Source: Naegleria gruberi
Taxonomy: Eukaryota
NCBI GenBank assembly: GCA_000004985.1
Contig: GG738858.1
Strand: one strand, 5' to 3'
DNA length: 64,000 bases
Shown: positions 2,770-33,603 of the stretch, piece after piece
How positions within the stretch are numbered: the stretch's first letter is position 1
How the letters are laid out: each line of letters opens with the position of its first letter
The notes under the pieces: model-generated
Told to the model about the DNA's origin: nothing
Databases searched by the model: none
Seen by the model: the letters and a program-made list of their open reading frames with translations, nothing else
Made by a program: the position numbers and the translations under genes

Positions 2770-4563
2770 TTATCTATGCATCAGATTGAGTGTTTCTTCT
2801 ACAATTAGATTTGGACTGGTAAGAGCCATATCAAAATCTGCATCAATTATCTTCCATGCCATTTTGGTGGAATTGTAGTAGGTAGCTAAATCTTGGTGCA
2901 TTGATAAAAAGGCGTTTGCACGTTCTTGTTGATAAATAAGAAAATCATTGCATAGAGCTGTTCCAAAAGAAAGGTAATTGTCCTCGCAAGATCCATAAAG
3001 TAATTTCTTTGATGTGAGTATACTGACTGGAATAATTGTTGAATTTGAAGAATGGAATTGCTGTCTCTTTGCTCTAATATTTATAATATTGCCTGTCGTA
3101 TTTTTCATGTCATCAAGCTCACCCCAAACAGCATTATTGAACTTGTTGATATTTGTTGTATGTTGGTTGTATTTCAGTAAAAGTTGAACAGCTGTTGAAT
3201 TTGGGAAAGATGAAAAATACGTCTTCCAGCCATTCAAGTAATATCGTTCATGGATTGTTCCTAAGGTGGAAGGGAGTTTTTGATAGAAATAATTTGAGAA
3301 ATATCTAGTAAATCCAATAGGTGTTACGAATCTAATGGTATTGGCCATATAGGCTTTCTCTTCTAACATATTGCTTATTTGAGTATCAGTTAAATTATAC
3401 ACACTACCAAGATGATATGTGTCTTGCTTTTCATGAGATGGATGCAACAAGATAACACCCCTCAAGAGTTTTCTGTGATATTCCATGACTGTTCTGGCTG
3501 TGAATGAGGCACTTGAATGTGAAATCAAAATGAATGGTGTTTTGAAAGATGCCTCTTTCACAAGTGCAATCATTTCATTCATTGTTGTATTGCTCAAATC
3601 TCTTGGAAATGGTCCCGAATCGCTGAATCCATATCCTGCTCTCTCAATCACACAAGCTCTCATTCCCTTCTTTGCCAACAGAGTGATTAAACTCTTCATA
3701 TAAGCATATGGTGATGCAACTCCAATATCTGAATCGAGAAGCACTGCATCTTCACTTTCAGAATCTCCTTCACAATACATGTGCATATTCAGTGTTTGAG
3801 CACTCGAGGGTTTAATGCTGTACATGGTTCCAGGGACTTTATATTCATCCTGTGTTATCGAAACTGATTGGACTGTAAACATGATGAATAAGGCACAAAC
3901 TAAAGCCATAAATGTATAGACTAGAAGCTTGATGACTGTTGTAACTCGACAACAAATTCTGGTTCTGAAAAAGCTTTCTTCTCCATACCATTTTTCTTCC
4001 TTCAAATCGAATATTATTGTATTTGATTTTCTAAATTTCTTGAATTGATGATATGCAATTACAAGATATGAAATTGGAGAGATGACAAAAAACAGGCAAA
4101 GCCAACCAGAAAGTCTCTCTCTATTCTCACTATAAAGTCCATAACAAACCCAATTAATCAAACTAGAGATGAAAATAAGTACTCCCCAAAATATTCTCGC
4201 AAAGAGAGCCATGCTATATCCGTCAATATTAATTTGACGAGTTAAATTATCCTTAATAAGTCCTTTCTTTTCAATAAAAGATACAATCCTCTTATACCAT
4301 CTCAATAAAAATAAAGGTCCGAATAGATCAAAAATGAATGTTAATGAAAAAACCATTTGAAATGCACTTGTCCACACAACAGTAGTAGGAGAACCTGCAG
4401 TAAAATATCCTATTTGATCAGAATTACTATTATCCATTGAAATTCCAAACACTACTATGGAGGATAATGCACAAAATAATATTGTTAGAATTGCAACTTT
4501 GTAAATTGCTCCAATTATTCCCTTCTTGGTCTTTTTAGTCTTCTTCTTTGTTGGCTTTTCCAA
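2770..4563 (-). CDS. multi-pass membrane protein with a C-terminal alpha/beta-hydrolase-fold domain (paralog A)
   Basis: 597-aa ORF. The N-terminal ~250 aa contain about 6 hydrophobic helices. The C-terminal half has CVIERAGYGFSD (a D-x-R-G-x-G-x-S-like AB-hydrolase motif) and ILISHSSAS (a nucleophile-elbow-like motif). The first codon is TTG with no in-frame ATG upstream; a possible acceptor lies at ttaatag near 4585, so a small upstream exon or a non-ATG start is possible. Confidence 0.55.
   Translation of the reverse strand: MEKPTKKKTKKTKKGIIGAIYKVAILTILFCALSSIVVFGISMDNSNSDQIGYFTAGSPTTVVWTSAFQMVFSLTFIFDLFGPLFLLRWYKRIVSFIEKKGLIKDNLTRQINIDGYSMALFARIFWGVLIFISSLINWVCYGLYSENRERLSGWLCLFFVISPISYLVIAYHQFKKFRKSNTIIFDLKEEKWYGEESFFRTRICCRVTTVIKLLVYTFMALVCALFIMFTVQSVSITQDEYKVPGTMYSIKPSSAQTLNMHMYCEGDSESEDAVLLDSDIGVASPYAYMKSLITLLAKKGMRACVIERAGYGFSDSGPFPRDLSNTTMNEMIALVKEASFKTPFILISHSSASFTARTVMEYHRKLLRGVILLHPSHEKQDTYHLGSVYNLTDTQISNMLEEKAYMANTIRFVTPIGFTRYFSNYFYQKLPSTLGTIHERYYLNGWKTYFSSFPNSTAVQLLLKYNQHTTNINKFNNAVWGELDDMKNTTGNIINIRAKRQQFHSSNSTIIPVSILTSKKLLYGSCEDNYLSFGTALCNDFLIYQQERANAFLSMHQDLATYYNSTKMAWKIIDADFDMALTSPNLIVEETLNLMHR
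3422..3777. repeat. ~350 bp tract identical to 6327..6682, with a single mismatch (gene-conversion tract within paralog A)
   Basis: Direct comparison of the two plus-strand stretches: cttgcttttcatgagatggatgcaacaagataacacccctcaagag ... ttcactttcagaatctcc is identical in both genes, with one mismatch at 3769/6674. The flanking sequence is only about 40% identical at the protein level. The identical antisense ORFs 3485..3703 and 6390..6608 are by-products of this tract. Confidence 0.85.
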
Positions 4564-5701: not shown

Positions 5702-7570
5702 TCAAAAATCTTGAAGAAAAGGAAGTATTAGTTCGGGATGATGTAAAGCAATATCATAATCCGAGGGGATGTGTTTCCAGGAGACGGAGTAGAGCTTGGG
5801 TTGATTTTTGTAAAAATTGAAGAGATCTTGATGGAGGAGTTGGATGATGAAAGATCTTTGGAATTGTTTTTGGAGGAAATCTTGGCAAATTGATGAACCT
5901 TCTGGAAAGAAATTTTGGCTACAATTTCCATTGAGAAGATAGCTTGATGTGAGGATGATTAGAGGGAGTGGTTTTGTTGAATTGGACATTGTTTGTGGAT
6001 TTTCTCTATTATGGATGATCTGCTTATTATTGAATGGGATGGATTTCAACTCACTCCAAACAGTGTTCGTAAATTTGTTGCTATTGAGAACACTATCGTA
6101 AATTTTCAATAATGTTGAATTAGTGAAAGATGGATAGAAGTACTTTTTCACACCATTCATATAATATCTATCATACCAATTATCCTTTTCATTTTCCTCC
6201 AATAATCCAAAAACTCGAAATATTCCAATAGGAACCAGCATTCTAATGGTATTCACATGGCTTACTTCAGTATTGTAGTGTTCCTCTACTGTTTCATTCT
6301 TGACAAATGTTCTCAGTAATGATTCTTCTTGCTTTTCATGAGATGGATGCAACAAGATAACACCCCTCAAGAGTTTTCTGTGATATTCCATGACTGTTCT
6401 GGCTGTGAATGAGGCACTTGAATGTGAAATCAAAATGAATGGTGTTTTGAAAGATGCCTCTTTCACAAGTGCAATCATTTCATTCATTGTTGTATTGCTC
6501 AAATCTCTTGGAAATGGTCCCGAATCGCTGAATCCATATCCTGCTCTCTCAATCACACAAGCTCTCATTCCCTTCTTTGCCAACAGAGTGATTAAACTCT
6601 TCATATAAGCATATGGTGATGCAACTCCAATATCTGAATCGAGAAGCACTGCATCTTCACTTTCAGAATCTCCCTCACAATATAGATGAAGGTTAATTGT
6701 CTGTGTGTCTTTGGAATATAAGGGCACCTGAACTGTTTGACCTGGCATGCTTTGAATTCCTGCCAAGATAGATACAGCCTGAATAACACAACCTATTAGT
6801 ACCACAATTAGTAGAGTTGTAAATATTAACACTGAAATATGGGCTGCTTTCATGAAGTATTTCATTATGGTTGATCTTTTAGAATACAAAAACAGATAGA
6901 TTTCATGGCAATTTTGTGTCTTTTTGTGCTTATGCTTTCCAAATTTTTCCTCATAGTATTCCTTGACATACCTTCCTTTAACAAACTGGTAATATTTTGT
7001 TAACAAATCAAAGATTACATTACTTACTTGATATACAATCACTAGAATATATGCAATCATTGGAATTAATCCAGAGAATGCAAACCAACCAGTCAATCTA
7101 TCTCTACTCTCCTTTACAGTATATGAAATCCAAATAATGGAAAGCAATAGCATTGTTACAATGGTAATTAATAATTTGATAATTAACATCAGAATAGAAG
7201 TATCCCATGATAGATACATGTAATTTGTATAATTAGTAACAAAAATCTTTTTCCTTTTAATACTAAATCCCATCATACAGCCCATAATTGGTATGAAATA
7301 TGAATCAATAATTAATAATCCAATGTAAAATAGCATTACAATAGAAATCCAAAATATTGTAACTGGTGATCCACTTGTATAAAATCCACTATTCGACACT
7401 ACATTAGCAGCACTAACAGACATTGTAACTATATATGAAATCAAAAAGAATATCAGTGTTATAGTGCTAATTTTGTACAGTGAATGAAAAATCTTCTCCA
7501 CATGTTTGAGTTCACTCGGCTTGGAAACAATTTTTGGACTTGTACTAATTGGAGAACCTTGCATTTCCAT
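5702..7570 (-). CDS. multi-pass membrane protein with a C-terminal alpha/beta-hydrolase-fold domain (paralog B)
   Basis: 622-aa ORF starting at ATG 7570 (MEMQGSPIS...). It has an N-terminal multi-TM region and the same hydrolase block as paralog A, including 136 identical residues. An 80-codon in-frame ORF (7571..7810) lies directly upstream, separated by a single TAA. Confidence 0.6.
   Translation of the reverse strand: MEMQGSPISTSPKIVSKPSELKHVEKIFHSLYKISTITLIFFLISYIVTMSVSAANVVSNSGFYTSGSPVTIFWISIVMLFYIGLLIIDSYFIPIMGCMMGFSIKRKKIFVTNYTNYMYLSWDTSILMLIIKLLITIVTMLLLSIIWISYTVKESRDRLTGWFAFSGLIPMIAYILVIVYQVSNVIFDLLTKYYQFVKGRYVKEYYEEKFGKHKHKKTQNCHEIYLFLYSKRSTIMKYFMKAAHISVLIFTTLLIVVLIGCVIQAVSILAGIQSMPGQTVQVPLYSKDTQTINLHLYCEGDSESEDAVLLDSDIGVASPYAYMKSLITLLAKKGMRACVIERAGYGFSDSGPFPRDLSNTTMNEMIALVKEASFKTPFILISHSSASFTARTVMEYHRKLLRGVILLHPSHEKQEESLLRTFVKNETVEEHYNTEVSHVNTIRMLVPIGIFRVFGLLEENEKDNWYDRYYMNGVKKYFYPSFTNSTLLKIYDSVLNSNKFTNTVWSELKSIPFNNKQIIHNRENPQTMSNSTKPLPLIILTSSYLLNGNCSQNFFPEGSSICQDFLQKQFQRSFIIQLLHQDLFNFYKNQPKLYSVSWKHIPSDYDIALHHPELILPFLQDF
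6327..6682. repeat. gene-conversion tract, copy 2 (identical to 3422..3777)
   Basis: see 3422..3777. Confidence 0.85.
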
Positions 7571-12059: not shown

Positions 12060-13109
12060 TTATTGTTTATTAAAATGTACATGATGAAAAGCGCTTTTCA
12101 TGTAAAATGAATTTGTCGATGATTGATTTTGAGATTGTAAAGTTTCGTCTGGTTGTTTTCTTGGTCTTCCTCTTCCTCGTTTCTCCGTGTTAGTTAGTTT
12201 CTTCTTGAGGGTGTCCACAGTATAGTTACAAAACTGATTCAGTAGCAATTCCTTATTGTTGTTATTGTTAGTTTTTAAAGGAGTTATTAAACTATTAGAA
12301 TGTATATCTGAATGGTTTTCTGAGAGAGTTTGTTTTGATATCTTTCGTTTCTGATGGATTTCTTCGTGATTACTCTGTTGTATTGTAGCGGATTGTTCTG
12401 TTGTGGTCGGCGCTTCGTCAATTCTCTTTCTCTTCTTGGTGCTCTCATTATTAGAGTCTGAAATCTTATTCGAAAGCAACGAAGAATGGGAGGAATCAGA
12501 GTGATGTCCCTCCTTAACAGCCATATGAACTGTGTTACAAAATTCTTCCTTAACAGGAATATTCGATTCATGATTTTCAGGTTTAGTCTCATGTTTCAAA
12601 TTCGAATTTAAAGAATTCAAATAGATAATCTGATCAATCAAATCAACCAGTTGAGCAATCATTAACTGATTATTCAATGCATCTTCTGAATTGGAAATAT
12701 ATTTCAAGGTACTTTTTAAACGATTCGATTCGATGCAGTTCAAAATTTGTTCAAAATTGGAATTACTGAATATTGGAGTGGAGAAATTGTTTGTTGTAGG
12801 TGGAGAAATTAATGTAGTGGAATGACTCGAATAAGGTTTCGAATAGTTTTGATCAGTGTTTGTAGAGATGTTGGAAGATGAGCTCGTGCATGTTTGGTGG
12901 GATAACATGGAAGATGTTTGAATACAATAGTTATTGGAAATGTTATTGGAAGGTTGTGGAAAGGATAATTGATTCGGCAATAAGAATTGTTGTGGAGGAG
13001 GTTGGATAACAGGAAGACTTGTTATTGGGCCACATATTTCGTCCATTGAATTTTGTTGAAGTAATTGTTTCATCATTTCCATGACTAGTTTCGTACTAAA
13101 ATCGTTCAT
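12060..13109 (-). CDS. paralog of the 10748 gene: S/N/Q-rich protein with a C-terminal AT-hook (KRGRGRPRK)
   Basis: ORF 12060..13136 has a first ATG at 13109 (MNDFSTKLVMEMMKQ...). It shares the FCNYTVDTL...KRGRGRPRKQP module with FCNDTVDMM...KRGVGRPRK in the 10748 gene. Confidence 0.4.
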   Translation of the reverse strand: MNDFSTKLVMEMMKQLLQQNSMDEICGPITSLPVIQPPPQQFLLPNQLSFPQPSNNISNNYCIQTSSMLSHQTCTSSSSNISTNTDQNYSKPYSSHSTTLISPPTTNNFSTPIFSNSNFEQILNCIESNRLKSTLKYISNSEDALNNQLMIAQLVDLIDQIIYLNSLNSNLKHETKPENHESNIPVKEEFCNTVHMAVKEGHHSDSSHSSLLSNKISDSNNESTKKRKRIDEAPTTTEQSATIQQSNHEEIHQKRKISKQTLSENHSDIHSNSLITPLKTNNNNNKELLLNQFCNYTVDTLKKKLTNTEKRGRGRPRKQPDETLQSQNQSSTNSFYMKSAFHHVHFNKQ

Positions 13110-13616
13110 ATTGTAAAGGAGCTGTTTCTTGATCAAGAAAAAGTGATACAGTTAGTGTGTATTGTCGAGTAAATGCTCTTTGTGTGGTTTTTTTGTTGAT
13201 GTATTTTACTACTACACTGTTTGAGCTCCTGTTCTTGAGATTTGGAAATAATATTAATTAAGATGCAAACTTTAAAAATTCCAAAAAAGAAACATGAAGA
13301 TCAAAAATGAATCAATGCAACTTTTTTGGATGAAAAAGCAAATTTTTTTTAAATATTGATAAGGAAGGCATTATGGTAAATGGCTATCAGGATTTCCAAG
13401 ATTGTATTTTTGACGAAACCACACTAAACCTCAGAAAATAATGAGCTGAAGTGCAATCTTAATTGATGTTTCACTTTTCTGAATGACATAATCGATTGTT
13501 TAGGAAATTGCCTTCTCCAGTTTTAAATTTGTTATTTGGTAAGGTTAATATTCTGATTACAATTAATTTAATAGTTACAATAACAAATAATTGAATGTAA
13601 TAAAATTAAAAAAAAA

Positions 13617-15065: not shown

Positions 15066-15443
15066 ATGAATAATAATAACTTTAATAAAAGCATGATGAA
15101 TAACAATAGAAGAGTAGGAGAGCAAGATTTGAATCCATTGCCTGGGTTTCAACCTTTACAAGGAAATGCTCCTTCCTCAATGAGTATTGGATTTGGTGGC
15201 AATCTCGTTGGACCAAATAATCCAATTTTCAATGGCTCGAATATTCCTTCTGCTTCTTCAATGGGAGGAGGTATGAAACCTCAGATGTTACCTGGTTCTA
15301 GATTTGATCCAGTTTATCCTATCATTGGGCCATTTGGAGGTTCTGTAAGTGGAAATAGAGGTGAAAGTTCTTCATCGTCTTCATTTGGAAATATTAATCC
15401 AGATCATCACAAACCTCCACAATTTGGAGATGAAGATTTGTAA
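15066..15443 (+). CDS. small protein resembling the proline/glycine-rich C-terminal region of proteasome inhibitor PI31
   Basis: GNLVGPNNPIF...GGGMKPQMLPGSRFDPVYPIIGPFGG...NINPDHHKPPQFGDEDL matches the PI31 C-terminal motifs (RFDP.GP, PDH..PP). No N-terminal FP domain was found in the upstream sequence. Confidence 0.35.
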   Translation: MNNNNFNKSMMNNNRRVGEQDLNPLPGFQPLQGNAPSSMSIGFGGNLVGPNNPIFNGSNIPSASSMGGGMKPQMLPGSRFDPVYPIIGPFGGSVSGNRGESSSSSSFGNINPDHHKPPQFGDEDL

Positions 15444-15559
15444 TTTCGATAACGAGTGAAACAAGAGTTTCAATAAATATAGCCCGAGTTTAATGTGAAT
15501 AAAATTTGCTTTCAAAGATTTTCAATATTCTTTATATTTATTGTGTTAAGGTAATGAAT

Positions 15560-15680
15560 GGCTACGGCCATATCACGATGAATGCACCTCATCCCGTCCG
15601 ATTTGAGAAGTTAAGCATCGTCGAGCCACATCAGTACTGAGGTTGGAGACAACTTGGGAACCTGTGGTGCTGTAGTCTTT
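15560..15680 (+). rRNA. 5S ribosomal RNA gene, copy 1
   Basis: ggctacggccatatcacgatgaa...ccgtccgatttgagaagttaagcatcgtcgagccacatcagtactgaggttggagacaacttgggaacctgtggtgctgtagtc fits the eukaryotic 5S consensus (GCCATAC-like 5' end, CCGATCTCGTCTGATCTCGGAAG-like core). It is followed by a T5 Pol III terminator. Confidence 0.85.
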
Positions 15681-15790
15681 TTATCACACATTAATTTCGA
15701 TAAATAGATGATTCACAGCACCAAAAAAAAGGAAATTCAACTTTTTCAACACTCATTGGAATTGCTGATTTACAGAGCTCAACAGCCAAT

Positions 15791-16927
15791 TTAGAAACAC
15801 TTTCTATGAACAAAACCTGGACCAGCCTCCTCATATTCCTCTTTCGATATCCACATCTGCTGAAAGGTTGCAAGACTCGCGAGGATACTACCTCCAATCC
15901 AAACTGAATACTTTCTTTCAGGTGGGGCGACAACCTTTATCTTCATTGAGGCTGGTGCCAAAGCAGTCAATTCCTTGGTCATTCTTTCAGCAATACCTTC
16001 GAACATGGTATTACCACCTGACAAGACAACATTTCCATACAATTCCTTTCTAATGTCAATGTCACATTTACCAATTGAGTTGAATGCCATTTCATGAACA
16101 CCAGCAGCCTCCATTTTTTCAACCAAATTAGGTTGGAATAAAACTTCTGGACATCTGAATCGTTCGTTACCAATTGTTATCACATTACCATCTGGTAATT
16201 CGTATAACTTTTCCACGGAGGATGATTCAGCAGCAACTTTCATTTCAGCTTCGAAATCTAAAGCAATATAACAGAGCTTTTCCTTAATACCTCTGACAAC
16301 TTCTCTTTCAGCAGTAGTATTGAATGAGTAACCTCTTTCCATCAAAATATTCATCAAACAATCAGTCAAGTCACGACCAGCCAAATCCAATCTCAAAATG
16401 GCATGTGGCAAGGCATAACCTTCATAAATTGGAACAGTGTGTGAAACACCATCACCAGAATCCAAAACTATACCAGTACTTCTACCAGAAGCATACAATG
16501 ACAAGACAGCTTGAATGGAAACATACATGGCCGGAACTGAGAAGGTTTCAAACATGATTTGACTCATCTTTTCTCTATTTGGCTTTGGATTAAAAGGAGC
16601 TTCAGTCAACAAGACTGGATGTTCCTCAGGAGCAACACATAATTCATTGTAGAAGGTGTGATGCCAGATCTTTTCCATATCATCCCAATTAGTAACAATA
16701 CCGTGCTCAATTGGATACCTTAAAGTCAAGACACCACACTTGTATTGAGCTTCATCACCAACATAGGCATCCTTACCAAACATTCCAATCATGATTGACT
16801 TTTGCTTTGGTCTAGCAACAATTGAGGGAAAGACAGCTCTTGGAGCATCATCACCAGCAAAACCAGCTTTACACATACCAGAACCGTTGTCAACAACGAG
16901 AGTTTGAACGTCTTCATAGAAAGACAT
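15791..16927 (-). CDS. actin (conventional, slightly divergent N-terminus)
   Basis: Translation from ATG 16927 is [40 protein letters not shown]...[40 protein letters not shown]. This is near-identical to canonical actin over about 375 aa. The longer listed ORF (start 16990) adds 21 non-actin residues. Confidence 0.9.
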
Positions 16928-17219
16928 TTGATTTGTTTTTTTTAAAGTTTGTTCATCTGGACAACATTTGACAATTTGAAGTTGACTCAAGTCTTCATAT
17001 CAGAGCTATCAGTCATATCCGTCAAGTAAATGAAAAAAGAACTTTTGAATTTTTGCTGGTTCCTAAATTTAGAAAATATTGAAATGATATGGAGTTGGAT
17101 TGTTCTTTGTTCGATAGTAATTCAAAATAATTCAAAGATTGTTGTGAACATCCCTTGTTGAAGATCAATAGGTAAGAATGCTTACCATTCCCCAAATGAT
17201 TTCATCTATATTTCAGTTT

Positions 17220-18218: not shown

Positions 18219-18405
18219 TTTTTTTTAATTTATTTTTACAACAGTTTCAATCTTTGTAACCAAACTGTGCAAGAAACACTGGAATTTGAGAGTTTTTAGT
18301 ATTCTTTACAATATAGGTCCAGCCTTGTTTAATATATAACATGAATAAATTTTGCTTTCGGAGATTTTCAATATTCTTTATATTCATTGTATTAAGGTAA
18401 TGAAT

Positions 18406-18526
18406 GGCTACGGCCATATCACGATGAAAGCACCTCATCCCGTCCGATTTGAGAAGTTAAGCATCGTCGAGCCACATCAGTACTGAGGTTGGAGACAACT
18501 TGGGAACCTGTGGTGCTGTAGTCTTT
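18406..18526 (+). rRNA. 5S ribosomal RNA gene, copy 2
   Basis: Differs from copy 1 at one position (gatgaaAgcacc versus gatgaaTgcacc) across 119 nt. It shares about 60 bp of upstream flank with copy 1 (ttttgctttc..agattttcaatattctttatatt.attgt.ttaaggtaatgaatg). T5 terminator follows. Confidence 0.85.
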
Positions 18527-18704
18527 TTAATTAAGTTTTAAGACACATGAATCTTTAAAGTTGTTCATGTAGTCTTTTTGAGGAGAATTTTACTCCCTGT
18601 TCAAAGTATTAACATTTGATATTTGGGCATTTAATTAAAGTAGTACCACAACATCTTTCTCGGCCAATTGGCTTTGATCGAGTGAAGTTTCTGTTCTTTT
18701 CAGT

Positions 18705-19094
18705 TTAATAGCTGAAAGCAGCCCAAGGGTTGCCTCCTCTCAATCTCAATACTAAATGCACAGTTGAGTCCTTTTGAAGATTGTAATCATTAATGGTTCT
18801 GCCATCTTCCAATTGTTTTCCTGCATAAATCAATCGTTGTTGATCTGAAGGAATACCTTCTTTATCAAATATCTTTTGTTTCATATTCTCAACAGTATCA
18901 CTCGATTCCATTTCAATTGTAATTGTCTTTCCAGTTAAGGTTTTTACTTGTTTTCCAGCAAAGATGAGTCTTTGTTGATCTGGTGAAATTCCTTCCTTTT
19001 CTTGAACTTTTCTTTTCACATTTTCAATTGAATCATTAGATTCAACTTCCAAAGTGATTGTTCTACCAATGAGTGTCTTGACGAATAATTGCAT
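18705..19094 (-). pseudogene. ubiquitin-derived ORF with an internal partial duplication or deletion (likely a polyubiquitin remnant)
   Basis: [18 protein letters not shown]...RLIFAGKQV, then the reading restarts at [16 protein letters not shown]...[35 protein letters not shown], followed by NPWAAFSY. That is Ub residues 1-48 fused to Ub residues 6-76 plus an 8-aa tail. The two parts are about 65% identical at the nucleotide level. The ATG overlaps the stop of the upstream actin fragment (TAATG). Confidence 0.55.
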
Positions 19095-20477
19095 TATGTT
19101 TGTTGTTTTTTTTTCTTATTGTTTTTCTTTGAATTCAAAGCATTTCTTTGCATTTTATTCTTGTAAACCTCCATTCCAATAAGATTTGGTTGAAATAATA
19201 TCTCAGTAGTTTTGAATCTTTCATTCCCAAGTGAAATTACATTTCCATCTGGCAATTCTAGACCGTGGGAGGTGAGAAGGATTGACAAATATTTTAAAAA
19301 AAAATTAAGAAGTCACTCAAAAAACAATTTGTTAAAGTCGAGCCGAAGGTTTATTGGACCAAGAGTGAGACAGTGTGTTCAAAGTATCAATTACCACTTG
19401 TTCTTCTAGAAACAAGTACTTCTGGGTTCTTGTACATGAACCTTCGCTTTAATGTACCAACAATTTCAAGTAAATGGGCAGGCACTTATCTAGATGATGT
19501 TTTGGTGAGGTGAATGTAGTAATGGCTGGTGAGGAAGGAAGCAAAGGGAGAACTCTCCTCATGGTGGCTTCTCAAGGTAGCATGCTGAAGGTGGGAATAC
19601 CAACCAATATACCTATTTAGCAGGGTGATGATGAAATCATGATGAGTAATTGTTGTTTGTTGTTTTTTTTTGTTGAATATTTAACGGTCAGAACAGACAA
19701 CTTTCAGCGGTTATTGGTTGGCGCGAAATTACCGTGATGTAACATTTTTTAGCTCACCTCCCTCGGTCTAGGCAATTCATATAAACTTTCTTTCGCTGTT
19801 TCTGCCAAAAAATTACTGGCAACATAACCAGTTTTTTCCTTCATATCCCTGACTAGTTCAGTTTCACCCATCGTGCTGAAATTATATCCTCGTTCCATTA
19901 ACATTTTCTTCAAATAATCTGTCAGGTCTTTGCCTCCTAATTCCAATCTTTTGGTGGCATGTGACAGGGCATATCCTTCATAAACAGGTACTGAATTAGT
20001 GACGCCATCACCTGATTCCAATACTACACCTGTCATTCTACCATTTGCAAATATTGACATGGCACATTGATTTGCCAAACACAAACCTCTCACCTTAAAA
20101 CTTTCAAACATGATTTGTGTCATTTTCACTTTCACATCCTTTGAATTTAGTGGCATTTCCATCAGTAATACTTCATGCTCCTCAGGAGCAACTCTTAACT
20201 CATTGTAAAATGTATGATGCCATATCTTTTCCATATGATACCAATCTGAAATTAATCCACGATCAATTGGATATTTGTAAACATTAATACCCCTCCTACA
20301 CAATGCATAATCTCCAACGTAAGTTTCGATAGAGCCCATTGAAAGGAGGAAGGGTGCTACTTTTCGATGTGAAGTTACTGTGGGAAAGACTGCTCGTGGA
20401 GCATAATCACCAGAAAAACCAGCTTTCATTTGAGAGGAACCATTATCAATGATGAGTGGTGGATTTTCATCAGTCAT
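19094..20477 (-). pseudogene. actin-like gene fragment (residues ~1-275 only), interrupted by a 512 bp TIR element and ending in a K-rich tail
   Basis: ORF 19749..20477 is MTDENPPLIIDNGSSQMKAGFSGDYAPRAVFP...ESLYELP-RPREVS-stop. ORF 19094..19288 is ...[31 protein letters not shown]...KKKKQQT-stop. Removing 19259..19778 restores a continuous [16 protein letters not shown] actin frame. The fragment is about 55-60% identical to actin and lacks the C-terminal ~100 residues. Confidence 0.6.
19259..19770. mobile_element. non-autonomous DNA transposon (MITE-like) with 18 bp terminal inverted repeats and an 8 bp target-site duplication
   Basis: Left end: ggcaattc|tagaccgtgggaggtgag. Right end: ctcacctccctcggtcta|ggcaattc. 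The TIRs are reverse complements with 1 mismatch. A perfect 8-bp direct repeat ggcaattc lies at 19251-19258 and 19771-19778. The interior (about 475 bp) has no ORF. Excision exactly restores the actin reading frame. Confidence 0.6.
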
Positions 20478-20575
20478 TTTTTTTTGTAAGTTTTAAATTG
20501 GGAACTTGGAACAATATTTCACTTGCATTAAAAGTTCAAAATTTTTGTGATTATCTCAATAATATAAAATCTTAA

Positions 20576-20646
20576 CTCGAACGCCGGGAATTGAACCCGG
20601 GTCGCCAGAGTGACAGTCTGGAATGCTACCACTATACCACGCCCGA
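20576..20646 (-). tRNA. tRNA-Asp (anticodon GTC)
   Basis: Minus strand reads TCGGGCG-TG-GTAT-AGTGGTAG-CATT-CCAGA-CTGTCAC-TCTGG-CGAC-CCGGG-TTCAATT-CCCGG-CGTTCGA-G, a cloverleaf. The anticodon loop CTGTCAC gives GUC, and the T-loop is TTCAATT. The overall pattern is like eukaryotic tRNA-Asp. A T-run follows the 3' end. Confidence 0.7.
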
Positions 20647-20851
20647 TTACATACCTTACGAAATCTCACCTTAATTCACCTTAATAACAAATCTCACTCA
20701 ATTCTGGCTAATTTGTATTTATTCAAAGGTATTTATGTTTTTAAAAGCTCCATGAACTTGGCTGGAAATTCAATTAAATGTGGAAACTTCTCTATTTGTT
20801 TCAGATGTGCATTTTCGAAAATGCATCTTTTTTTTCAAATATGAATCACAA

Positions 20852-22060
20852 ATGGACAAAGTTGATGGAAACACAACCAAAAAAATGGATCCACAACTAA
20901 CGTTCAAGGCATACAGCAAGATTGAAAATCATCATCAGGAGAGTTTCGTTTCAAAGTTATTGGAAAAGGAAACTGAAGATTCGGATAAGAAATTGGAATG
21001 GGTTTGCTTGGAGAAAGTGCATGGTAGCAATTTCAGCTTTATTGTTGTTCCTAAAGAAGGATCACAAGATAAAGTTGAAGTATTGAAAGCAAATCGTACC
21101 AATGTTCTTACCATATTAAGTAATTTCTTTGTGGAAGCTCAAAAAGAAGTTTACGAAAGATATTACAAGAGTTGTGTTAAATTATTCGAAATTATTTCTC
21201 AAAATGCAGAAAAATTCAAACGAAAGACTATGGAAACTGAAAGTGAAATTACAAAAATTCACATATTTGGTGAATTATTTGGTGGATACTTTCCAAAATT
21301 GAAAAATGATCAAGATTCGAATGGTATTCGTAAAGCACACATTCAAAAAGGTGTTTACTATTGTCCACATTATGATTTTTACGTATTTGATGTGGCAGTG
21401 ACATTTGGCGACCAAGATACTTGGTTACTTTTCGATGAGGCAGATCCAATTCTTGAAGAAGCAGGATTTAGAGTTAGAGCTAAACCACTTTTTAGAGGTT
21501 CATTGAAGGAATGTTTGGATTTTGATGTGGAAATTAACACGATAATTCCACAAACTTTTTATTCTGACATTTTGACAGAAAATGATATTTTATTTAAGGA
21601 AAAGGAAAATATTTGTGAAGGAGTGGTGATTAAACCTGCTAATGGTACTGTATTTGTCGGATCGAGGGCAATTATTAAGAAGAAGAATTCAAAATTTACT
21701 GAAGTCAATCCTGCCAAAGATAAATCTAAACGAATGAAGAAACAGGAAAAATCTGTGGATCAAGACGAACAAGAAATGATTTCTAATGTGTGGAATGAAA
21801 TTGAGCGATATTTGAATAATAATCGTCTTGATAATGTCGTTTCCAAAGTTGGAAATATTACTAGAGAAAATCTTTCACTTGTTTTGAAGAATTTTGTGAA
21901 CGATGCCATTGAGGATTATGATAAAGATCAACAAGAATTGGGAGAAGAAGGAGCTACCCTATCATCCCTTCCAGTCAACATTCAAAAATCAATCAAGAAG
22001 AAATTGGGATCCACCTGTCAAGCAATTCTTCTAAAATACATGAACGAAAACAAACAATAA
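20852..22060 (+). CDS. Rnl2-family (T4 Rnl2 / kinetoplastid REL-like) RNA ligase with a C-terminal extension
   Basis: First ATG at 20852 (MDKVDGNTTKK...). WVCLEKVHGSNFSF matches nucleotidyltransferase motif I (K-x-H/D-G) of the Rnl2 family (KIHGTN). HIFGELFGGYFP matches the Rnl2 motif III/IV region. YVFDVAV and a K-rich tail follow. The listed ORF start 20780 is GTG. Confidence 0.55.
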   Translation: MDKVDGNTTKKMDPQLTFKAYSKIENHHQESFVSKLLEKETEDSDKKLEWVCLEKVHGSNFSFIVVPKEGSQDKVEVLKANRTNVLTILSNFFVEAQKEVYERYYKSCVKLFEIISQNAEKFKRKTMETESEITKIHIFGELFGGYFPKLKNDQDSNGIRKAHIQKGVYYCPHYDFYVFDVAVTFGDQDTWLLFDEADPILEEAGFRVRAKPLFRGSLKECLDFDVEINTIIPQTFYSDILTENDILFKEKENICEGVVIKPANGTVFVGSRAIIKKKNSKFTEVNPAKDKSKRMKKQEKSVDQDEQEMISNVWNEIERYLNNNRLDNVVSKVGNITRENLSLVLKNFVNDAIEDYDKDQQELGEEGATLSSLPVNIQKSIKKKLGSTCQAILLKYMNENKQ

Positions 22061-22308
22061 ACCCAGATTCTAACACTCTTACCTTAATAAATTCCCATCT
22101 TTAAATCAGTTAATGTACTTCACTTGCATGAAGATGATCTTTTTGAGAGAGAGATTTAAAAAGTTCATCAAAACTCAATCTCTGAAATTTTATTTCATCG
22201 TAATGAACCAGAAAAAAATATTATTTTTTTAATCATCAAAAAAAAACCTTAATAACAAACTCTGTCGGGAACAGATAGCAATTATCATTATTATTGTTAT
22301 CAATCAAT

Positions 22309-23649
22309 ATGAAGGAAATAATAACAATTCATGTCGGAGGGGCCGGATGTCAAATAGGCGATCAGTTGTGGGAGTTATATTGTAAGGAACACGGTATACA
22401 ACGTGCTGCAGATCATCATACCAATAATACAACCTCCATGATGGAATCATCAGCTGCCTTTTCATCAGCAGAGAGTTTGTTCTATGAAACGAGTCATACA
22501 GAAAAGCAACAATATGTTCCATTGGCTATCTTTTTCGATAACGACTCATCAAGAGTGCACGAATCGAGGAAGAGATTTGGTAACTTAATGTCCTCAGACA
22601 ATATGATTGGAGGTAAGGAAGATGCTGCCAATAATTTTGTGAGAGGATGCTACACGATTGGAAAGGAGAATATGGATACAGTCTTGGAGAGGATTAGAAT
22701 ATTGAGTGAGAAGTGTGATAGTTTGCAGGGAATTAATGTTGTGAACTCGTTGGGAGGAGGAACAGGCTCTGGATCAGGAACATTATTGCTTGATAGAATG
22801 AGTATAGACTTTGCAAAGGTTCCAATTCATTTGAATACTGTTGCACCATCTCCAAAATTGTATGATACAGTTGTGGAACCATATAATTTTTGTTGGGCTA
22901 TGGAACCAATGTGTGAAAAGGGATGCACAGCAACTTTTTATGATAATGAGGCCTTGTACAATGTTTGTGGAAATCATTTGGGAATTAATGATCCGAAATT
23001 AGCTGATATTAATCAAATTATTGCACACCACATTTCCACAAGCTTTTCCAGTTGTAGAATTGGATCTAATTGTGCAATGCCTGTTTCATTTGGAGATGTA
23101 AATCAGACACTTGTTCCAATTCCAAACTTTGAATTACTTACCCCTTCATTTGTACCATTTGGTTCTGCTCAGAACGAGTTGAGTATGGCAGAGAGGGGCA
23201 AACTTGCATTTAGTCCTTCCAACACTTTGATTTCTTACAACATCTTGGAAGGAAAAATGCTGAGCTCACTGTTAAGTTATAGAGGAAATGTAACTATGGG
23301 AGATAACTTTGAATGTTTGAGTGCTGTCAAAAAGATGGAGGGTATTTCTATGGGCCCTTCTTGGATTCCAAATACTTTCAGTTGCCACATCTCCAAAGCT
23401 CCAACAACTCTTTTGGATGATTCAGTTCTTGGGGTTGTGCCAAGTGAAAAGATGCTTGCAGTAACAACCAACACAACTGCCATCACCAAAAAATTGAATC
23501 AAATTATGGTAAACTTTGATAAAATGTATGAAAAGAGAGCATTTGTTCATTGGTATGTTGGAGAGGGCATAGAAGATGAATATTTTAGATATGGAAGATC
23601 TATACTCGAAGAAAAGGTTGCCACCTATGGAGAGTTGATTTCACAATAA
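22309..23649 (+). CDS. highly divergent alpha-tubulin-like protein
   Basis: First ATG at 22309. [30 protein letters not shown] corresponds to the alpha-tubulin N-terminus (MREVISIHVGQAGIQ..WELYCLEHGI). It carries the tubulin signature GGGTGSG and a C-terminus [27 protein letters not shown] (compare alpha [24 protein letters not shown]). The middle region is very diverged, with insertions. Confidence 0.7.
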   Translation: [446 protein letters not shown]

Positions 23650-28395: not shown

Positions 28396-29991
28396 ATGTG
28401 TTGTTTTGGTTGTGTATTTTCCAATTTTTTCAGAGAAGTAATGGGAGTAAGAGAATTTACGATCCGTCTGTTTAAGAGCGAAGATCGTTCGAAAACATAC
28501 AAACCACTGATTGATATCCTTCCGTGGTGGGCTGTTTTAGTCCTTTTTATTATTGCAACAGTATTATTTGGTATTGCTATCATTGTGGGTGTCTTTGCAG
28601 GCCCAGTCGTATTGGATTCACACTATGTGGAAATGGATACAAGAAAGAACACAACAACAAGTTCACGTGGATCTATTGATTTTGTGCCAAGAACATCATC
28701 ACATTTGAGATATGCTCAATATACTTTGGATGGAGATCATGATGATCTCAAGCCACTTTTCTATGGTCAAGAACAAGTCTTGGCTACAGCACCAACAACA
28801 TTTAGTGCCATTAATCAAGAGATTAATTTTCTCTGTTATTTGAAATCTAATACTTCAACATTTTCTGTGGAATCTGAAAAGGCCTTTGGTTTCCAAAAGT
28901 CTAACCTCCAGTTCTTCTTGCAACTTTTTGGTAAGGATGAAGCTGATGGTGATTGGGAGCTTATTGTGAATGGTACCTATTCCAGACCATTGGTTTGTAC
29001 TTCCACTAGTGAACTCTGTGATCCAATTACACTATTCTATGAATCACATATTAGACATCCATACTATCGTATTGGTGTGAGCTTCCTCAACTCTCGTGAA
29101 TTATATGATAATACTCTTATTGATCCACATTTCGTCAAGATGGAATTTGAAAGCTACAATGCTGCTTATTCAAATTGGGAATTGGGCTGGAGATATAGTA
29201 TAATCTTTATCACTGCTCCACTCTGTATTGCTTTCATTATTGCCAATATTATTAGAAGTCACTTTGTAAATTGGGCTACTGAACAAAAGTGGATTGGATT
29301 GTTGCTCATTTTCCTTGTACTTTACAATAATCCTATTTTTGCATTGATTTTCACAGCAGGTAACTGGGCTTTCTCCTTTATTAATATTGTATTTATTATT
29401 AGTTTCGTTTGCTTTTTAATGTTTGTGGTGCTGGTTTTCACTGATTCTCTTGTCATTCCACAAAAAGATAGATCATTCCTGTGGTTCTACATCCCAAAGA
29501 TTGTATTGGTTGGCATTCTCTTTGTATTTGTCATTACTACCTTTACCTACGTCAGACTTCAAGAACAAGAAGATCCAGGTTACAATTTGGGAATTGTTCA
29601 AGGACTTTCCTCATATCAAACATTGGGCATTATTGTTGTATTGATTATGCTTGTCTACATCTTTGTTCTTATTTATTATTTGATGAGAGTTATTGAAAAG
29701 CACAGAATGAACTTGTTACCAAAGAGAAATGCTTGGCGTAGTAAGGTTATTTGGTTCTTGACCATTACAATGGTTATTGGTACTATTGTGGAAATCTTCC
29801 TCTACGTTTTCAGTAAGGATTGGAATAGCTCTGCTCAATTCTTGTCCTACTTTATGTTCTACAGTTTGTACGTTTGGCTCATTACCATTCTCTATTGGCC
29901 AAGCTTTACTGCCGTTCAACAAGAAGAATTCGACGAAGAAAATAACACCCAAGCCAAAGAAGATGATTACTTTGATGAAATGGATGAATAA
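28396..29991 (+). CDS. multi-pass membrane protein with Wntless/TMEM181-like topology (N-terminal TM, ~200-aa luminal domain, 7 C-terminal TMs)
   Basis: The topology is read from hydrophobic segments. The assignment to the Wntless/TMEM181 family rests on architecture only, with weak sequence support. An alternative start is ATG 28441 (MGVREF...), preceded by ttttttcag. Confidence 0.3.
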   Translation: MCCFGCVFSNFFREVMGVREFTIRLFKSEDRSKTYKPLIDILPWWAVLVLFIIATVLFGIAIIVGVFAGPVVLDSHYVEMDTRKNTTTSSRGSIDFVPRTSSHLRYAQYTLDGDHDDLKPLFYGQEQVLATAPTTFSAINQEINFLCYLKSNTSTFSVESEKAFGFQKSNLQFFLQLFGKDEADGDWELIVNGTYSRPLVCTSTSELCDPITLFYESHIRHPYYRIGVSFLNSRELYDNTLIDPHFVKMEFESYNAAYSNWELGWRYSIIFITAPLCIAFIIANIIRSHFVNWATEQKWIGLLLIFLVLYNNPIFALIFTAGNWAFSFINIVFIISFVCFLMFVVLVFTDSLVIPQKDRSFLWFYIPKIVLVGILFVFVITTFTYVRLQEQEDPGYNLGIVQGLSSYQTLGIIVVLIMLVYIFVLIYYLMRVIEKHRMNLLPKRNAWRSKVIWFLTITMVIGTIVEIFLYVFSKDWNSSAQFLSYFMFYSLYVWLITILYWPSFTAVQQEEFDEENNTQAKEDDYFDEMDE

Positions 29992-33377: not shown

Positions 33378-33448
33378 AGGGAGATAGTTCAGTGGTAGAA
33401 CATGGGATTGTGGTTCCTAAGATCAGGGTTCGATTCCCTGTCTTCCTA
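33378..33448 (+). tRNA. tRNA-His (anticodon GTG)
   Basis: AGGGAGA-TA-GTTC-AGTGGTA-GAAC-A-TGGGA-TTGTGGT-TCCTA-AGAT-CAGGG-TTCGATT-CCCTG-TCTTCCT-A. The acceptor pairs 7/7 counting one G-T wobble. The anticodon loop TTGTGGT gives GUG. A T-run terminator follows. Confidence 0.65.
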
Positions 33449-33531
33449 CACCTTTTATTTTATTTTTTACCCAATAAGAATATCTGGTATTTTATAATTC
33501 TTGTTCGATTTTTTTAATAAGAACATCGTAA

Positions 33532-33603
33532 AGCAAATTGGCGCAGCGGAAGCGCGATGGGCTCATAACCCATAGGTCCTAGGATCGAAACCTAGATTTG
33601 CTA
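33532..33603 (+). tRNA. initiator tRNA-Met (anticodon CAT)
   Basis: AGCAAATTGGCGCAGCGGAAGCGCGATGGGCTCATAACCCATAGGTCCTAGGATCGAAACCTAGATTTGCTA is near-identical in pattern to eukaryotic tRNAi-Met (AGCAGAGTGGCGCAGCGGAAGCGTGCTGGGCCCATAACCCAGAGGTCGATGGATCGAAACC...). It includes the initiator-specific A54/A60 T-loop ATCGAAA. A T6 terminator follows. Confidence 0.8.

Follow-up and report, generated by a model that had tools for sequence, protein, structure and literature searches.

Broken copies of actin, di-ubiquitin and U2 snRNA genes in an interval of Naegleria gruberi DNA flanked by 5S rRNA and tRNA genes

Unprocessed pseudogenes and relics of multigene families are redundant genes that have been disabled by truncation, internal deletion or transposon insertion while keeping their native flanks. 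A different class of composite sequence is represented by chimeric retrogenes, in which U6, U3, 5S or U2 sequences are joined to mRNA copies and which reportedly arise through template switching of a LINE reverse transcriptase; U6-, U3- and 5S-mRNA chimeras occur in mammals. 5S rRNA genes are reported to be linked to other multigene families in some organisms, for example to ubiquitin in Tetrahymena pyriformis, and linkage of 5S to snRNA or spliced-leader repeats also occurs. Miniature elements of the hAT type are short and non-coding, carry terminal inverted repeats (TIRs) that usually begin with YARNG and are flanked by 8-bp target-site duplications (TSDs). Naegleria gruberi itself encodes at least seven intact 152-aa di-ubiquitin genes (XP_002670147.1 and at least six paralogues), which are dispersed and end in GG followed immediately by a stop codon.

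The locus analysed here lies in a 64-kb window, the term used for the whole stretch of DNA under study, and consists of about 2 kb bounded by a 5S rRNA gene on one side and a tRNA gene on the other. This interval is made up of broken copies of actin, di-ubiquitin and U2 snRNA genes and a small transposon. Read 5' to 3' on the minus strand, the order is tRNA-Asp, an actin fragment split by a TIR element, a di-ubiquitin leader, a di-ubiquitin remnant, an antisense U2 piece and 5S rRNA. Every piece could be identified, each junction could be placed to within 1-3 nt and the transposon insertion could be delimited. Of the genes within 18.3-20.7 kb, probably only 5S and tRNA-Asp, both of which appear intact, are functional. 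The two open reading frames (ORFs) of the locus are exact matches to NAEGRDRAFT_65595 and NAEGRDRAFT_32234, two “predicted proteins” with consecutive accessions; the junctions leave open frames, which is why the reference annotation calls these two relics proteins.

Table 1 Features of the locus and of the neighbouring 5S rRNA unit and actin gene.
Feature	Coordinates	Strand	Evidence and remarks
5S rRNA unit, copy 1	15491..15683	+	Gene 15560-15678; Rfam 105.4 bits; repeat
Intact conventional-type actin NAEGRDRAFT_44432, 378 aa	15791..16927	-	Exact match to XP_002679406.1; convergent with 5S copy 1
5S rRNA unit, copy 2	18337..18529	+	Gene 18406-18524; about 70 nt conserved upstream; T5 terminator; appears intact
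Spacer, presumed U2 upstream region	18530..18650	+	Putative promoter
U2 snRNA 5' fragment, 83 nt	18651..18733	+	Rfam RF00004, 74.2 bits (cut-off 46), E=9.5e-13
Di-ubiquitin remnant ORF, 129 aa	18705..19094	-	NAEGRDRAFT_32234 / XP_002679408.1, 100% identical
8-codon read-through into antisense U2	18731..18708	-	Stop 18707..18705
Di-ubiquitin unit 2, residues 5-76	18947..18732	-	
Di-ubiquitin unit 1, residues 1-49	19094..18948	-	
Native di-ubiquitin 5' leader, 70 nt	19095..19164	-	Homologous to 70 nt preceding the ATG in L001, L002 and L004
Actin fragment, distal piece	19166..19258	-	Residues 234-264 of NAEGRDRAFT_29917-type actin; 96.8% identity by tblastn
Non-autonomous TIR element, MITE-like, 512 bp	19259..19770		Inverted repeat and sequence inspection
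Actin fragment, proximal piece, residues 1 to about 236	19771..20477	-	NAEGRDRAFT_65595, 242 aa; ends at a stop inside the MITE
tRNA-Asp (GTC), intact	20576..20646	-	ARAGORN; Rfam tRNA 54.4 bits

A preliminary description had called this a mosaic pseudogene locus, and that view is upheld: the actin has lost its last ~104 residues and runs into a stop in the TIR element, while in the ubiquitin 31 codons are missing, along with the stop codon, the 3' flank and the promoter region upstream. The elements named in that description (5S, tRNA-Asp, actins, ubiquitin ORF and MITE) were all recovered at or close to the positions given there, far above chance. Like other unprocessed pseudogenes, the locus comprises redundant genes disabled by truncation, internal deletion and transposon insertion, and native flanks are kept in the form of the actin 5' flank, the di-ubiquitin leader and the U2 upstream DNA. 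Unlike ordinary representatives of this class, it holds three unrelated relics head to tail within 2 kb. The protein clusters of NAEGRDRAFT_65595 and NAEGRDRAFT_32234 have one member each, and the same truncated architecture is absent among the matches listed in protein searches with either ORF. A search for an orthologous locus via the flanking NHL protein returned only that protein itself as homologue, and the literature search yielded nothing specific on the locus tags or on Naegleria U2, 5S organisation or MITEs.

The actin fragment is encoded by a 242-aa ORF at 20477..19749 (-), 100% identical to XP_002679409.1, and its reading frame resumes at 19258..19166 after removal of the 512-bp insert and one TSD copy. 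The Pfam Actin profile (PF00022) matches with E=2e-73 and 247.8 bits over profile positions 2-300 of 410. The fragment corresponds to residues 1-264 of a 368-aa paralogue, NAEGRDRAFT_29917, which is located on another scaffold, is 90.2% identical over 264 aa and belongs to a subfamily whose specific 7-residue deletion is also found in the fragment. Homology to NAEGRDRAFT_29917 stops at ...LIGMEV; the preliminary description had given the frame as residues ~1-275. Identity to the conventional-type actin of Table 1 had been put at about 55-60%, and the measured value of 54.6% over 260 aa falls just below that range. The actin fold is incomplete in the fragment, as the C-terminal ~100 residues completing subdomains 3 and 1 are absent, and the MITE additionally interrupts the ORF. 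The missing C-terminal third is found nowhere else in the 64-kb window. Private substitutions at otherwise invariant columns number three in the fragment and three in intact NAEGRDRAFT_29917, and polarised differences amount to 9 versus 11, with no excess in the fragment; owing to this lack of asymmetry, the substitution data provide no independent sign of decay.

A MITE-like element at this locus, initially proposed as a MITE, is supported by 18-bp TIRs, TAGACCGTGGGAGGTGAG and its complement, matching at 17 of 18 positions, and by the 8-bp TSD GGCAATTC at 19251-19258 and 19771-19778. Excising the element together with one TSD copy restores the actin frame and a conserved 12-residue motif exactly as found in NAEGRDRAFT_29917. 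In its length of 512 bp, lack of coding capacity, 18-bp TIRs and 8-bp TSD, the element resembles hAT-type MITEs; it differs from them in that its TIR begins with TAGAC instead of YARNG and in being represented by one copy in 64 kb, as no second copy was found in the window. The idea that the 512-bp segment is a spliceable intron was considered and rejected, the best GT...AG pair leaving 20 extra nt and shifting the frame.

The 129-aa ORF is matched by the Pfam ubiquitin profile (PF00240, E=1.4e-45) in two stretches, and the C-terminal RLRGG is present. Compared with the intact genes L001 (a related environmental contig), L002 and L004, the remnant shows 92-94% nucleotide identity, a 93-nt in-frame gap, and replacement of the stop codon and 3' flank. 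The ORF had been described as Ub(1-48) joined to Ub(6-76) with the loss of about 33 codons and an added 8-aa tail. The internal deletion is confirmed, but the exact join is between residues 1-49 and 5-76, corresponding to 93 nt or 31 codons, and the tail, though present, had gone unrecognized: NPWAAFSY is antisense U2. Comparable internal deletions are seen in a few polyubiquitin entries of unrelated assemblies.

With the 152-aa di-ubiquitin genes of N. gruberi the remnant shares the same two non-identical units and the 70-nt leader with ACATAATG, a motif found in the leader at three of the four further di-ubiquitin loci examined, and in pairwise alignments it is 93-98% identical to them at the protein level. 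Unlike them, it has neither the stop codon nor the 3' flank and promoter region, 31 codons are deleted, and it carries 3-4 private amino-acid changes. The family features missing are two complete 76-residue units, a stop right after GG and the conserved upstream region; specifically, the remnant is not preceded by the conserved box or the TATA-like CTAAAAATA that lie upstream in L001, L002 and L004. Among intact di-ubiquitin pairs, two of three comparisons yield 16-19 synonymous and 0 non-synonymous codon differences and the third (L002/L004) yields 3 and 0, whereas the remnant differs from intact copies by 17-23 synonymous and 4 non-synonymous codons, a small non-synonymous excess (4 versus 0). 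AF2 modeling of the 129-aa ORF gave a mean pLDDT of 58.5, with values below 50 around the junction.

The junction between the actin fragment and the di-ubiquitin leader lies at 19165. The overlap of the actin-frame stop with the ubiquitin ATG (TAATG) noted before is real. However, this overlap and the K-rich tail of the actin frame, both part of what had been described as a head-to-tail fusion of actin and ubiquitin, belong to the native A-rich di-ubiquitin 5' leader, and because the tail is leader sequence, actin and ubiquitin are not directly fused. All three oddities of the reading frames are accounted for in this way: the K-rich tail results from translation of the leader, TAATG is native and the 8-aa tail is antisense U2.

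The U2 snRNA fragment, which the preliminary description had overlooked, is oriented opposite to the di-ubiquitin remnant. It contains stem-loop I, the branch-point recognition region and stem-loops IIa and IIb, of which IIa and IIb fold, and it lacks the Sm site and the 3' stem-loops III and IV. The Rfam U2 alignment is real only over model positions ~1-90 and collapses after ~100; past 18733, the opposite strand encodes di-ubiquitin. Both the point of U2 truncation and the origin assigned to 18530-18650 are derived solely from the Rfam model. The spacer has no Rfam match at E<=1 and no homology to the di-ubiquitin 3' flanks of L001, L002 and L004. A 15-nt similarity between the U2 upstream DNA (18598-18612) and the interior of the MITE (19376-19390) was judged to be due to chance. 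The remainder of U2 was also sought at the far side of the block (20478-20575), a candidate that was rejected as only an AT-rich run without stems is found there. Searches of metagenome, prokaryote-genome and viral collections with the 5S-spacer-U2 arrangement, the U2 core and the Naegleria 5S core returned 0 hits.

The 5S copies, the tRNA-Asp gene flanking the locus and the second, intact actin next to 5S copy 1 were confirmed with Rfam, ARAGORN and Pfam. 5S copy 2 matches Rfam RF00001 over its full length (model positions 1-120, 106.3 bits), and the two 5S units are 96-97% identical, with homology stopping sharply on both sides. At the single base that distinguishes the two 5S copies, copy 2 agrees with the N. 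fowleri 5S gene. NAEGRDRAFT_44432 covers the full Pfam Actin profile (477 bits) and is 90.5% identical to NAEGRDRAFT_55094. As in known 5S-linked multigene families, 5S is found beside di-ubiquitin, both in the window and in L001, where an intact di-ubiquitin gene has a convergent 5S gene ~170 nt downstream, and beside U2 in the window. Unlike tandem co-repeats, these are dispersed single 5S units, and at the polyubiquitin locus of N. fowleri no such linkage exists, neither 5S nor U2 being present there. In this analysis, 4 of 4 5S units followed an apparent rule of lying directly behind a protein gene in convergent orientation. No 5S gene lies near conventional actin on contigs from environmental samples (L005-L011). 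Among five N. fowleri actin loci, one has 5S 1.4 kb upstream, but there the convergent partner of the 5S gene is a different small ORF.

Based on these data, the actin, ubiquitin and U2 pieces are probably dead copies of multi-copy genes and not a working fusion gene, left behind by three deletions and one transposon insertion. The ancestral order was likely co-linear, with 5S and U2 on the plus strand facing di-ubiquitin, a divergent actin and tRNA-Asp on the minus strand (5S(+) > U2(+) > < di-ubiquitin(-) < divergent actin(-) < tRNA-Asp(-)), and the pieces are all arranged and oriented as neighbouring genes would be. Three DNA-level deletions would then have eroded this cluster. At J1 (~19165), the last ~104 actin codons, intergenic DNA and the di-ubiquitin promoter up to 70 nt before the ATG would have been removed; at J2 (18948|18947), 93 nt within the di-ubiquitin gene; and at J3 (~18734|18733), the 3' half of U2, the di-ubiquitin stop codon and the spacer. 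Subsequently, the 512-bp TIR element would have inserted into the actin remnant, generating the 8-bp target duplication.

As the three breakpoints (19165, 18947/8 and 18733/4) cluster within ~450 bp, one complex event could also have produced the locus. A double-strand break, or a fork that stalled close to the Pol III genes, might have been repaired by end-joining or replicative template switching (FoSTeS/MMBIR-like, with filler DNA), stitching together actin, di-ubiquitin and U2 copies that would still be pseudogenes. The lack of microhomology at J2 and at most 1 nt at J1 fit such blunt joins, the U2 piece is inverted relative to ubiquitin, the closest actin paralogue and the other annotated di-ubiquitin genes reside, to judge from scaffold lengths, on other scaffolds, and no second actin/di-ubiquitin tandem is known. 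We nevertheless consider this origin unlikely, given that the pieces are ordered and oriented like simple neighbouring genes, that di-ubiquitin with a convergent 5S occurs independently in L001, and that further small deletions are neutral and expected once a gene has died. The preliminary description had instead suggested that a local segmental duplication copied an “actin + 5S” unit, after which one of the copies decayed and took up a polyubiquitin fragment and a MITE. It is true that each 5S copy lies in convergent orientation on the downstream side of a minus-strand actin-family sequence and that identity between the 5S units reaches 97%. However, nucleotide alignment of the two regions recovers only the 188-193-nt 5S unit (97%) and actin coding sequence (67.7% over 600 nt), with no intergenic homology, and the lack of non-coding homology outside the 5S unit means that a recent duplication is not supported. 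In addition, the two actins, at 54.6% identity, represent different subfamilies, each with a ~90% identical relative on another scaffold. Capture of ubiquitin is likewise doubtful: the di-ubiquitin carries its own leader, and with at least seven dispersed di-ubiquitin genes and an intact one beside 5S in L001, the pairing in the window need not reflect capture. Duplication followed by capture is therefore highly improbable. Equally hard to credit is an assembly artefact through mis-joined reads of the multi-copy 5S, di-ubiquitin and actin families. All components do come from repeated families, and some polyubiquitin entries of other assemblies show comparable internal deletions, but the junctions join non-homologous positions, which is not what repeat collapse would produce. 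Unique sequence is found within one Sanger read length of all three junctions, the TSD of the MITE is clean, and private substitutions are spread along the whole length of the di-ubiquitin copy.

Two further origins appear extremely unlikely. Template switching by a reverse transcriptase among ubiquitin mRNA, actin mRNA and U2 snRNA would yield a chimeric retrogene. As in LINE-made chimeras, an snRNA sequence directly abuts an mRNA-type sequence, here exactly where the coding sequence ends, and the di-ubiquitin piece begins close to the probable transcript start. The locus departs from such retrogenes in that U2 is oriented opposite to ubiquitin and retains its 5' end and non-transcribed upstream DNA while lacking its 3' end, whereas template switching would give the opposite pattern. 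A 3' UTR is missing, sequence inspection and a repeat search found neither a poly(A) tract nor flanking direct repeats or a TSD around the block, and the actin piece is the 5' part of its gene, joined upstream of ubiquitin. Alternatively, a Pack-MITE-, Helitron- or hAT-type element could have picked up the actin and ubiquitin fragments and carried them along. The locus does contain a TIR element with an 8-bp TSD, whose interior holds a leader-like A-rich segment and an ATG. Yet the TIRs do not enclose the gene fragments, the element has simply inserted into the actin remnant, and the repeat search found no TIRs or direct repeats bounding the whole block. It is also conceivable, though very unlikely, that something still works, in that the 129-aa ORF might yield a GG-ended ubiquitin variant after trimming of the tail, or that the presumed U2 promoter might drive a transcript antisense to the di-ubiquitin genes. 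The ORF is open with its internal deletion in frame, the ATG, leader and C-terminal RLRGG are kept, only 3-4 residues differ from intact paralogues, and U2, with its 5' end and upstream DNA intact, runs into the ubiquitin remnant. Conversely, the upstream box and TATA-like element of di-ubiquitin genes are deleted, unit 1 lacks strands 3-5 and GG, and in unit 2 the first four residues of strand 1 are missing. AF2 assigns low confidence, the single-member cluster and the absence of the exact junction and tail among the other matches listed likewise argue against function, and at least seven intact copies make the remnant dispensable. In a similarly far-fetched scenario, the relic would not be inert: the putative U2 promoter and the 5' 83 nt could drive a chimeric transcript that acts as a source of antisense RNA or siRNA against the at least seven active di-ubiquitin genes (92-94% identical), or the product could be a conjugatable GG-ended ubiquitin variant with a half-ubiquitin N-terminal extension. 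A related speculation would have 5S units behave as ~190-bp cassettes that land repeatedly just downstream of highly expressed genes and seed rearrangements.

Serial decay in place, the reading we prefer, makes the locus ordinary genomic debris, and it does not challenge current understanding. Its main value is a correction of the annotation, with NAEGRDRAFT_65595 and NAEGRDRAFT_32234 probably being pseudogene fragments. In addition, a truncated U2 snRNA gene absent from the annotated pair comes to light, and the N. gruberi genome is shown to contain a TIR element with an 8-bp TSD. The locus offers a small, well-delimited example of redundant multi-copy genes (actin, di-ubiquitin and U2) decaying beside Pol III genes, and it hints that the dispersed 5S units of Naegleria may tend to sit convergently just downstream of protein genes.

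The locus at 18.3-20.7 kb lies in an AT-rich (~34% GC), gene-dense eukaryotic window, and its 242-aa actin-like and 129-aa ubiquitin-like ORFs exactly match the Naegleria gruberi proteins XP_002679409.1 (NAEGRDRAFT_65595) and XP_002679408.1 (NAEGRDRAFT_32234). Both are encoded on the same 782,252 bp scaffold as the neighboring 378-aa actin (XP_002679406.1, NAEGRDRAFT_44432). The comparison set comprised protein records of N. gruberi, loci of Naegleria fowleri and four contigs of environmental or contaminant origin with near-identical di-ubiquitin genes (L001-L004); no mention of these loci was found in the literature searched. The elements listed in a preliminary description, including the bordering 5S rRNA and tRNA-Asp genes, were correct except in a few minor figures and in lacking one component, a U2 snRNA fragment. 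Its reading as a mosaic pseudogene is supported: judged by sequence, the actin, di-ubiquitin and U2 pieces are all considered pseudogenes; both the 5S gene and the tRNA-Asp gene appear to be intact.

Features of the locus and its surroundings (window positions)
Feature	Position	Strand	Details
Direct repeat	3422-3721 and 6327-6626		300 nt, 100% identical
PI31 proteasome-regulator C-terminal domain protein	15066-15443	+	flanks locus
5S rRNA copy 1	15560-15678	+	Rfam, full-length, 105-106 bits
Neighboring actin	15791-16927	-	NAEGRDRAFT_44432
5S rRNA copy 2	18406-18524	+	Rfam, full-length, 105-106 bits
U2 snRNA match	18651-18773	+	Rfam, 74 bits (cut-off 46)
Ubiquitin ORF	19094-18705	-	Pfam ubiquitin, E=1.4e-45
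TIR element (MITE-like)	19259-19770		512 bp; 18-bp terminal inverted repeats, 17/18 matching
Actin-like frame	20477-19166	-	broken at 19770-19259
tRNA-Asp(GTC)	20576-20646	-	Rfam
T4 Rnl2-type RNA ligase	20780-22060	+	Pfam RNA_ligase and T4_Rnl2_C
Divergent tubulin-family protein	22294-23649	+	Tubulin domain, 161 bits; flanks locus
Protein with Wntless-like transmembrane domain	28396-29991	+	200 bits; flanks locus
tRNA-His(GTG)	33378-33449	+
tRNA-Met(CAT)	33532-33603	+
1919-aa ORF	37180-42939	+	~120-nt tandem Cys-rich, EGF-like-looking repeats (37832-39039), 60-75% identical mutually

Around the locus, the RNA ligase gene starts ~130-200 nt from the divergently oriented tRNA-Asp gene, and the tRNA-His and tRNA-Met genes, 83 nt apart, form a second small Pol III gene cluster. 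Each copy of the direct repeat sits within a long minus-strand ORF (2770-4563 and 5702-7570), and their identity suggests that tandem paralogues underwent duplication or gene conversion very recently.

Excision of the TIR element and one 8-bp duplication leaves the actin frame open, yielding a 264-residue N-terminal part (Pfam Actin, E=2e-73, profile positions 2-300 of 410) followed by 23 more residues and a TAA overlapping the ATG of the ubiquitin ORF. The actin is truncated, as had been described, with an extent of 264 residues. Its closest relative is NAEGRDRAFT_29917, a 368-aa actin on another scaffold (90.2% identity, residues 1-264), and the two have in common a 7-residue deletion and other signatures of a divergent subfamily. 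Homology ends at ...NLIGMEV, where NAEGRDRAFT_29917 goes on AGIHEN..., and the absent C-terminal ~104 residues are encoded nowhere else in the 64 kb. Identity to the neighboring actin, which is conventional-type and 90.5% identical to NAEGRDRAFT_55094, is only 54.6%, against the about 55-60% first given. At columns that do not vary among five other Naegleria actins, this "intact" neighbor has 8 private substitutions, two of them R>C and others Y>C and G>K, and it may be a divergent or relaxing isoform in its own right.

The 512-bp insert is bordered by identical 8-mers (GGCAATTC) and represents a MITE-like, hAT-style insertion; its excision recovers a 12-residue actin motif exactly as in NAEGRDRAFT_29917. 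The annotated actin model is 242 aa long because the insert introduces a stop after codon 242. On the minus strand of its interior (19640-19680), an A-rich stretch followed by an ATG resembles N. gruberi 5' leaders: it matches that of di-ubiquitin at 95% identity across 21 nt and that of ORF 12060-13136 at 79% across 33 nt, and may represent the captured start of a gene.

Di-ubiquitin genes encoding 152 aa occur in N. gruberi as at least seven dispersed copies, each made of two distinct units with a stop directly after GG. The window copy, 92-94% identical to intact copies at the nucleotide level, lacks 93 nt (unit 1 L50-G76 and unit 2 M1-F4), and its homology stops within the last Gly codon. 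Two ubiquitin units joined in frame had been recognized previously, but the breakpoints and the loss of about 33 codons need correction. The 70 nt at 19164-19095 are homologous to the 70 nt before the ATG of the intact genes on L001, L002 and L004, whose leaders all read ...AACAAACATAATG, which argues that the previously noted K-rich tail of the actin frame, those 23 residues, is the translated A-rich leader and that the TAATG overlap comes from the ubiquitin gene itself. The upstream box TTTGTGTCCAGAAACAAAA...GTTCA and TATA-like CTTTCTAAAAATA common to N. gruberi-type di-ubiquitin genes (L001 540-672, L002 40-193, L004 205-366, L003 135-296) are absent at the window copy, where actin coding sequence is found instead. 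All differences between the intact copies compared are synonymous (16-19 codons in two of the three pairs and 3 for L002 versus L004, with 0 non-synonymous codons in each), and the window copy differs from them at 17-23 synonymous and 4 non-synonymous codons, which hints weakly at relaxed constraint. AlphaFold modeling of the 129-aa ORF, based on a shallow alignment, gave a mean pLDDT of 58.5, unusually low for ubiquitin, with values <50 around the junction. Both units of N. gruberi-type di-ubiquitin differ from canonical ubiquitin by 15-20%.

Only the 5' ~83 nt of the U2 match are U2 proper, comprising stem I, the branch-point recognition region and stems IIa and IIb in the Rfam alignment, without the Sm site and 3' stems; from 18734 on, the sequence is di-ubiquitin coding sequence of the opposite strand. 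The 8-residue ubiquitin tail noted earlier, NPWAAFSY, and its stop codon are U2 stems IIb and IIa read in antisense. The U2 fragment is a new component of the mosaic.

BLASTN of 15300-17200 against 18220-20700 returned only two kinds of match, a 188-nt 5S unit (96.8%; 193 nt by repeat finder) ending at ~-70 and the T5 terminator, and actin coding sequence (67.7% over 600 nt, 72% over 94 nt), with no intergenic homology. As the actins also belong to different subfamilies, the recent segmental duplication of an 'actin + 5S' unit proposed initially is not supported. The two 5S copies differ at one base, where copy 2 has the N. fowleri state, and the confinement of their homology to these limits suggests that Naegleria 5S units may be discrete dispersed cassettes. 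On L001, a convergent 5S gene lies ~170 nt downstream of an intact di-ubiquitin gene; such a pairing thus exists in at least one other place, and no "capture" of the ubiquitin has to be assumed. With the 5S genes at L001 1301-1403 and at 6504-6622 of an N. fowleri locus (L018), the Naegleria 5S genes seen number four, each of them 100-210 nt 3' of a convergent protein-coding gene: an actin, the di-ubiquitin remnant, an intact di-ubiquitin gene and, in N. fowleri, a 100-aa ORF.

We infer that 5S(+), U2(+), di-ubiquitin(-), actin(-) and tRNA-Asp(-) were most likely ordinary neighbors in this order and orientation. Three deletions would then account for all junctions, joining actin codon 264 to di-ubiquitin position -70 (J1, ~19165), removing the internal ubiquitin segment (J2, 18948|18947) and joining U2 nucleotide ~83 to the last Gly codon (J3, ~18734|18733). 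Once the di-ubiquitin gene was disabled, later deletions would have been neutral, and loss of the affected genes would be tolerable because all belong to multi-copy families. The MITE insertion, probably the latest event at the locus, would have followed the deletions. The main alternative is a single complex repair event creating all junctions, since all three breakpoints fall in a stretch of 450 bp and have little microhomology or none.

Retroposition or template switching is disfavored by the antisense U2, which lacks its 3' rather than its 5' end, and by the absence of poly(A) and of a target-site duplication. Capture of gene fragments by a transposon is likewise disfavored, as the TIRs do not enclose the fragments and nothing bounds the block. 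Misassembly appears unlikely because the joins connect non-homologous positions.

Neither protein cluster (actin fragment or ubiquitin ORF) has a further member and no other listed match has either architecture; similar internal deletions occur in a few polyubiquitin entries of unrelated assemblies. An actin-ubiquitin fusion protein could not be made from this sequence, as the actin frame meets one stop at the MITE and another at TAATG, and any activity of the ubiquitin ORF, or of an antisense transcript driven by the U2 promoter, is highly improbable. The locus is real but ordinary: a cluster of gene relics carried in the annotation as two proteins.
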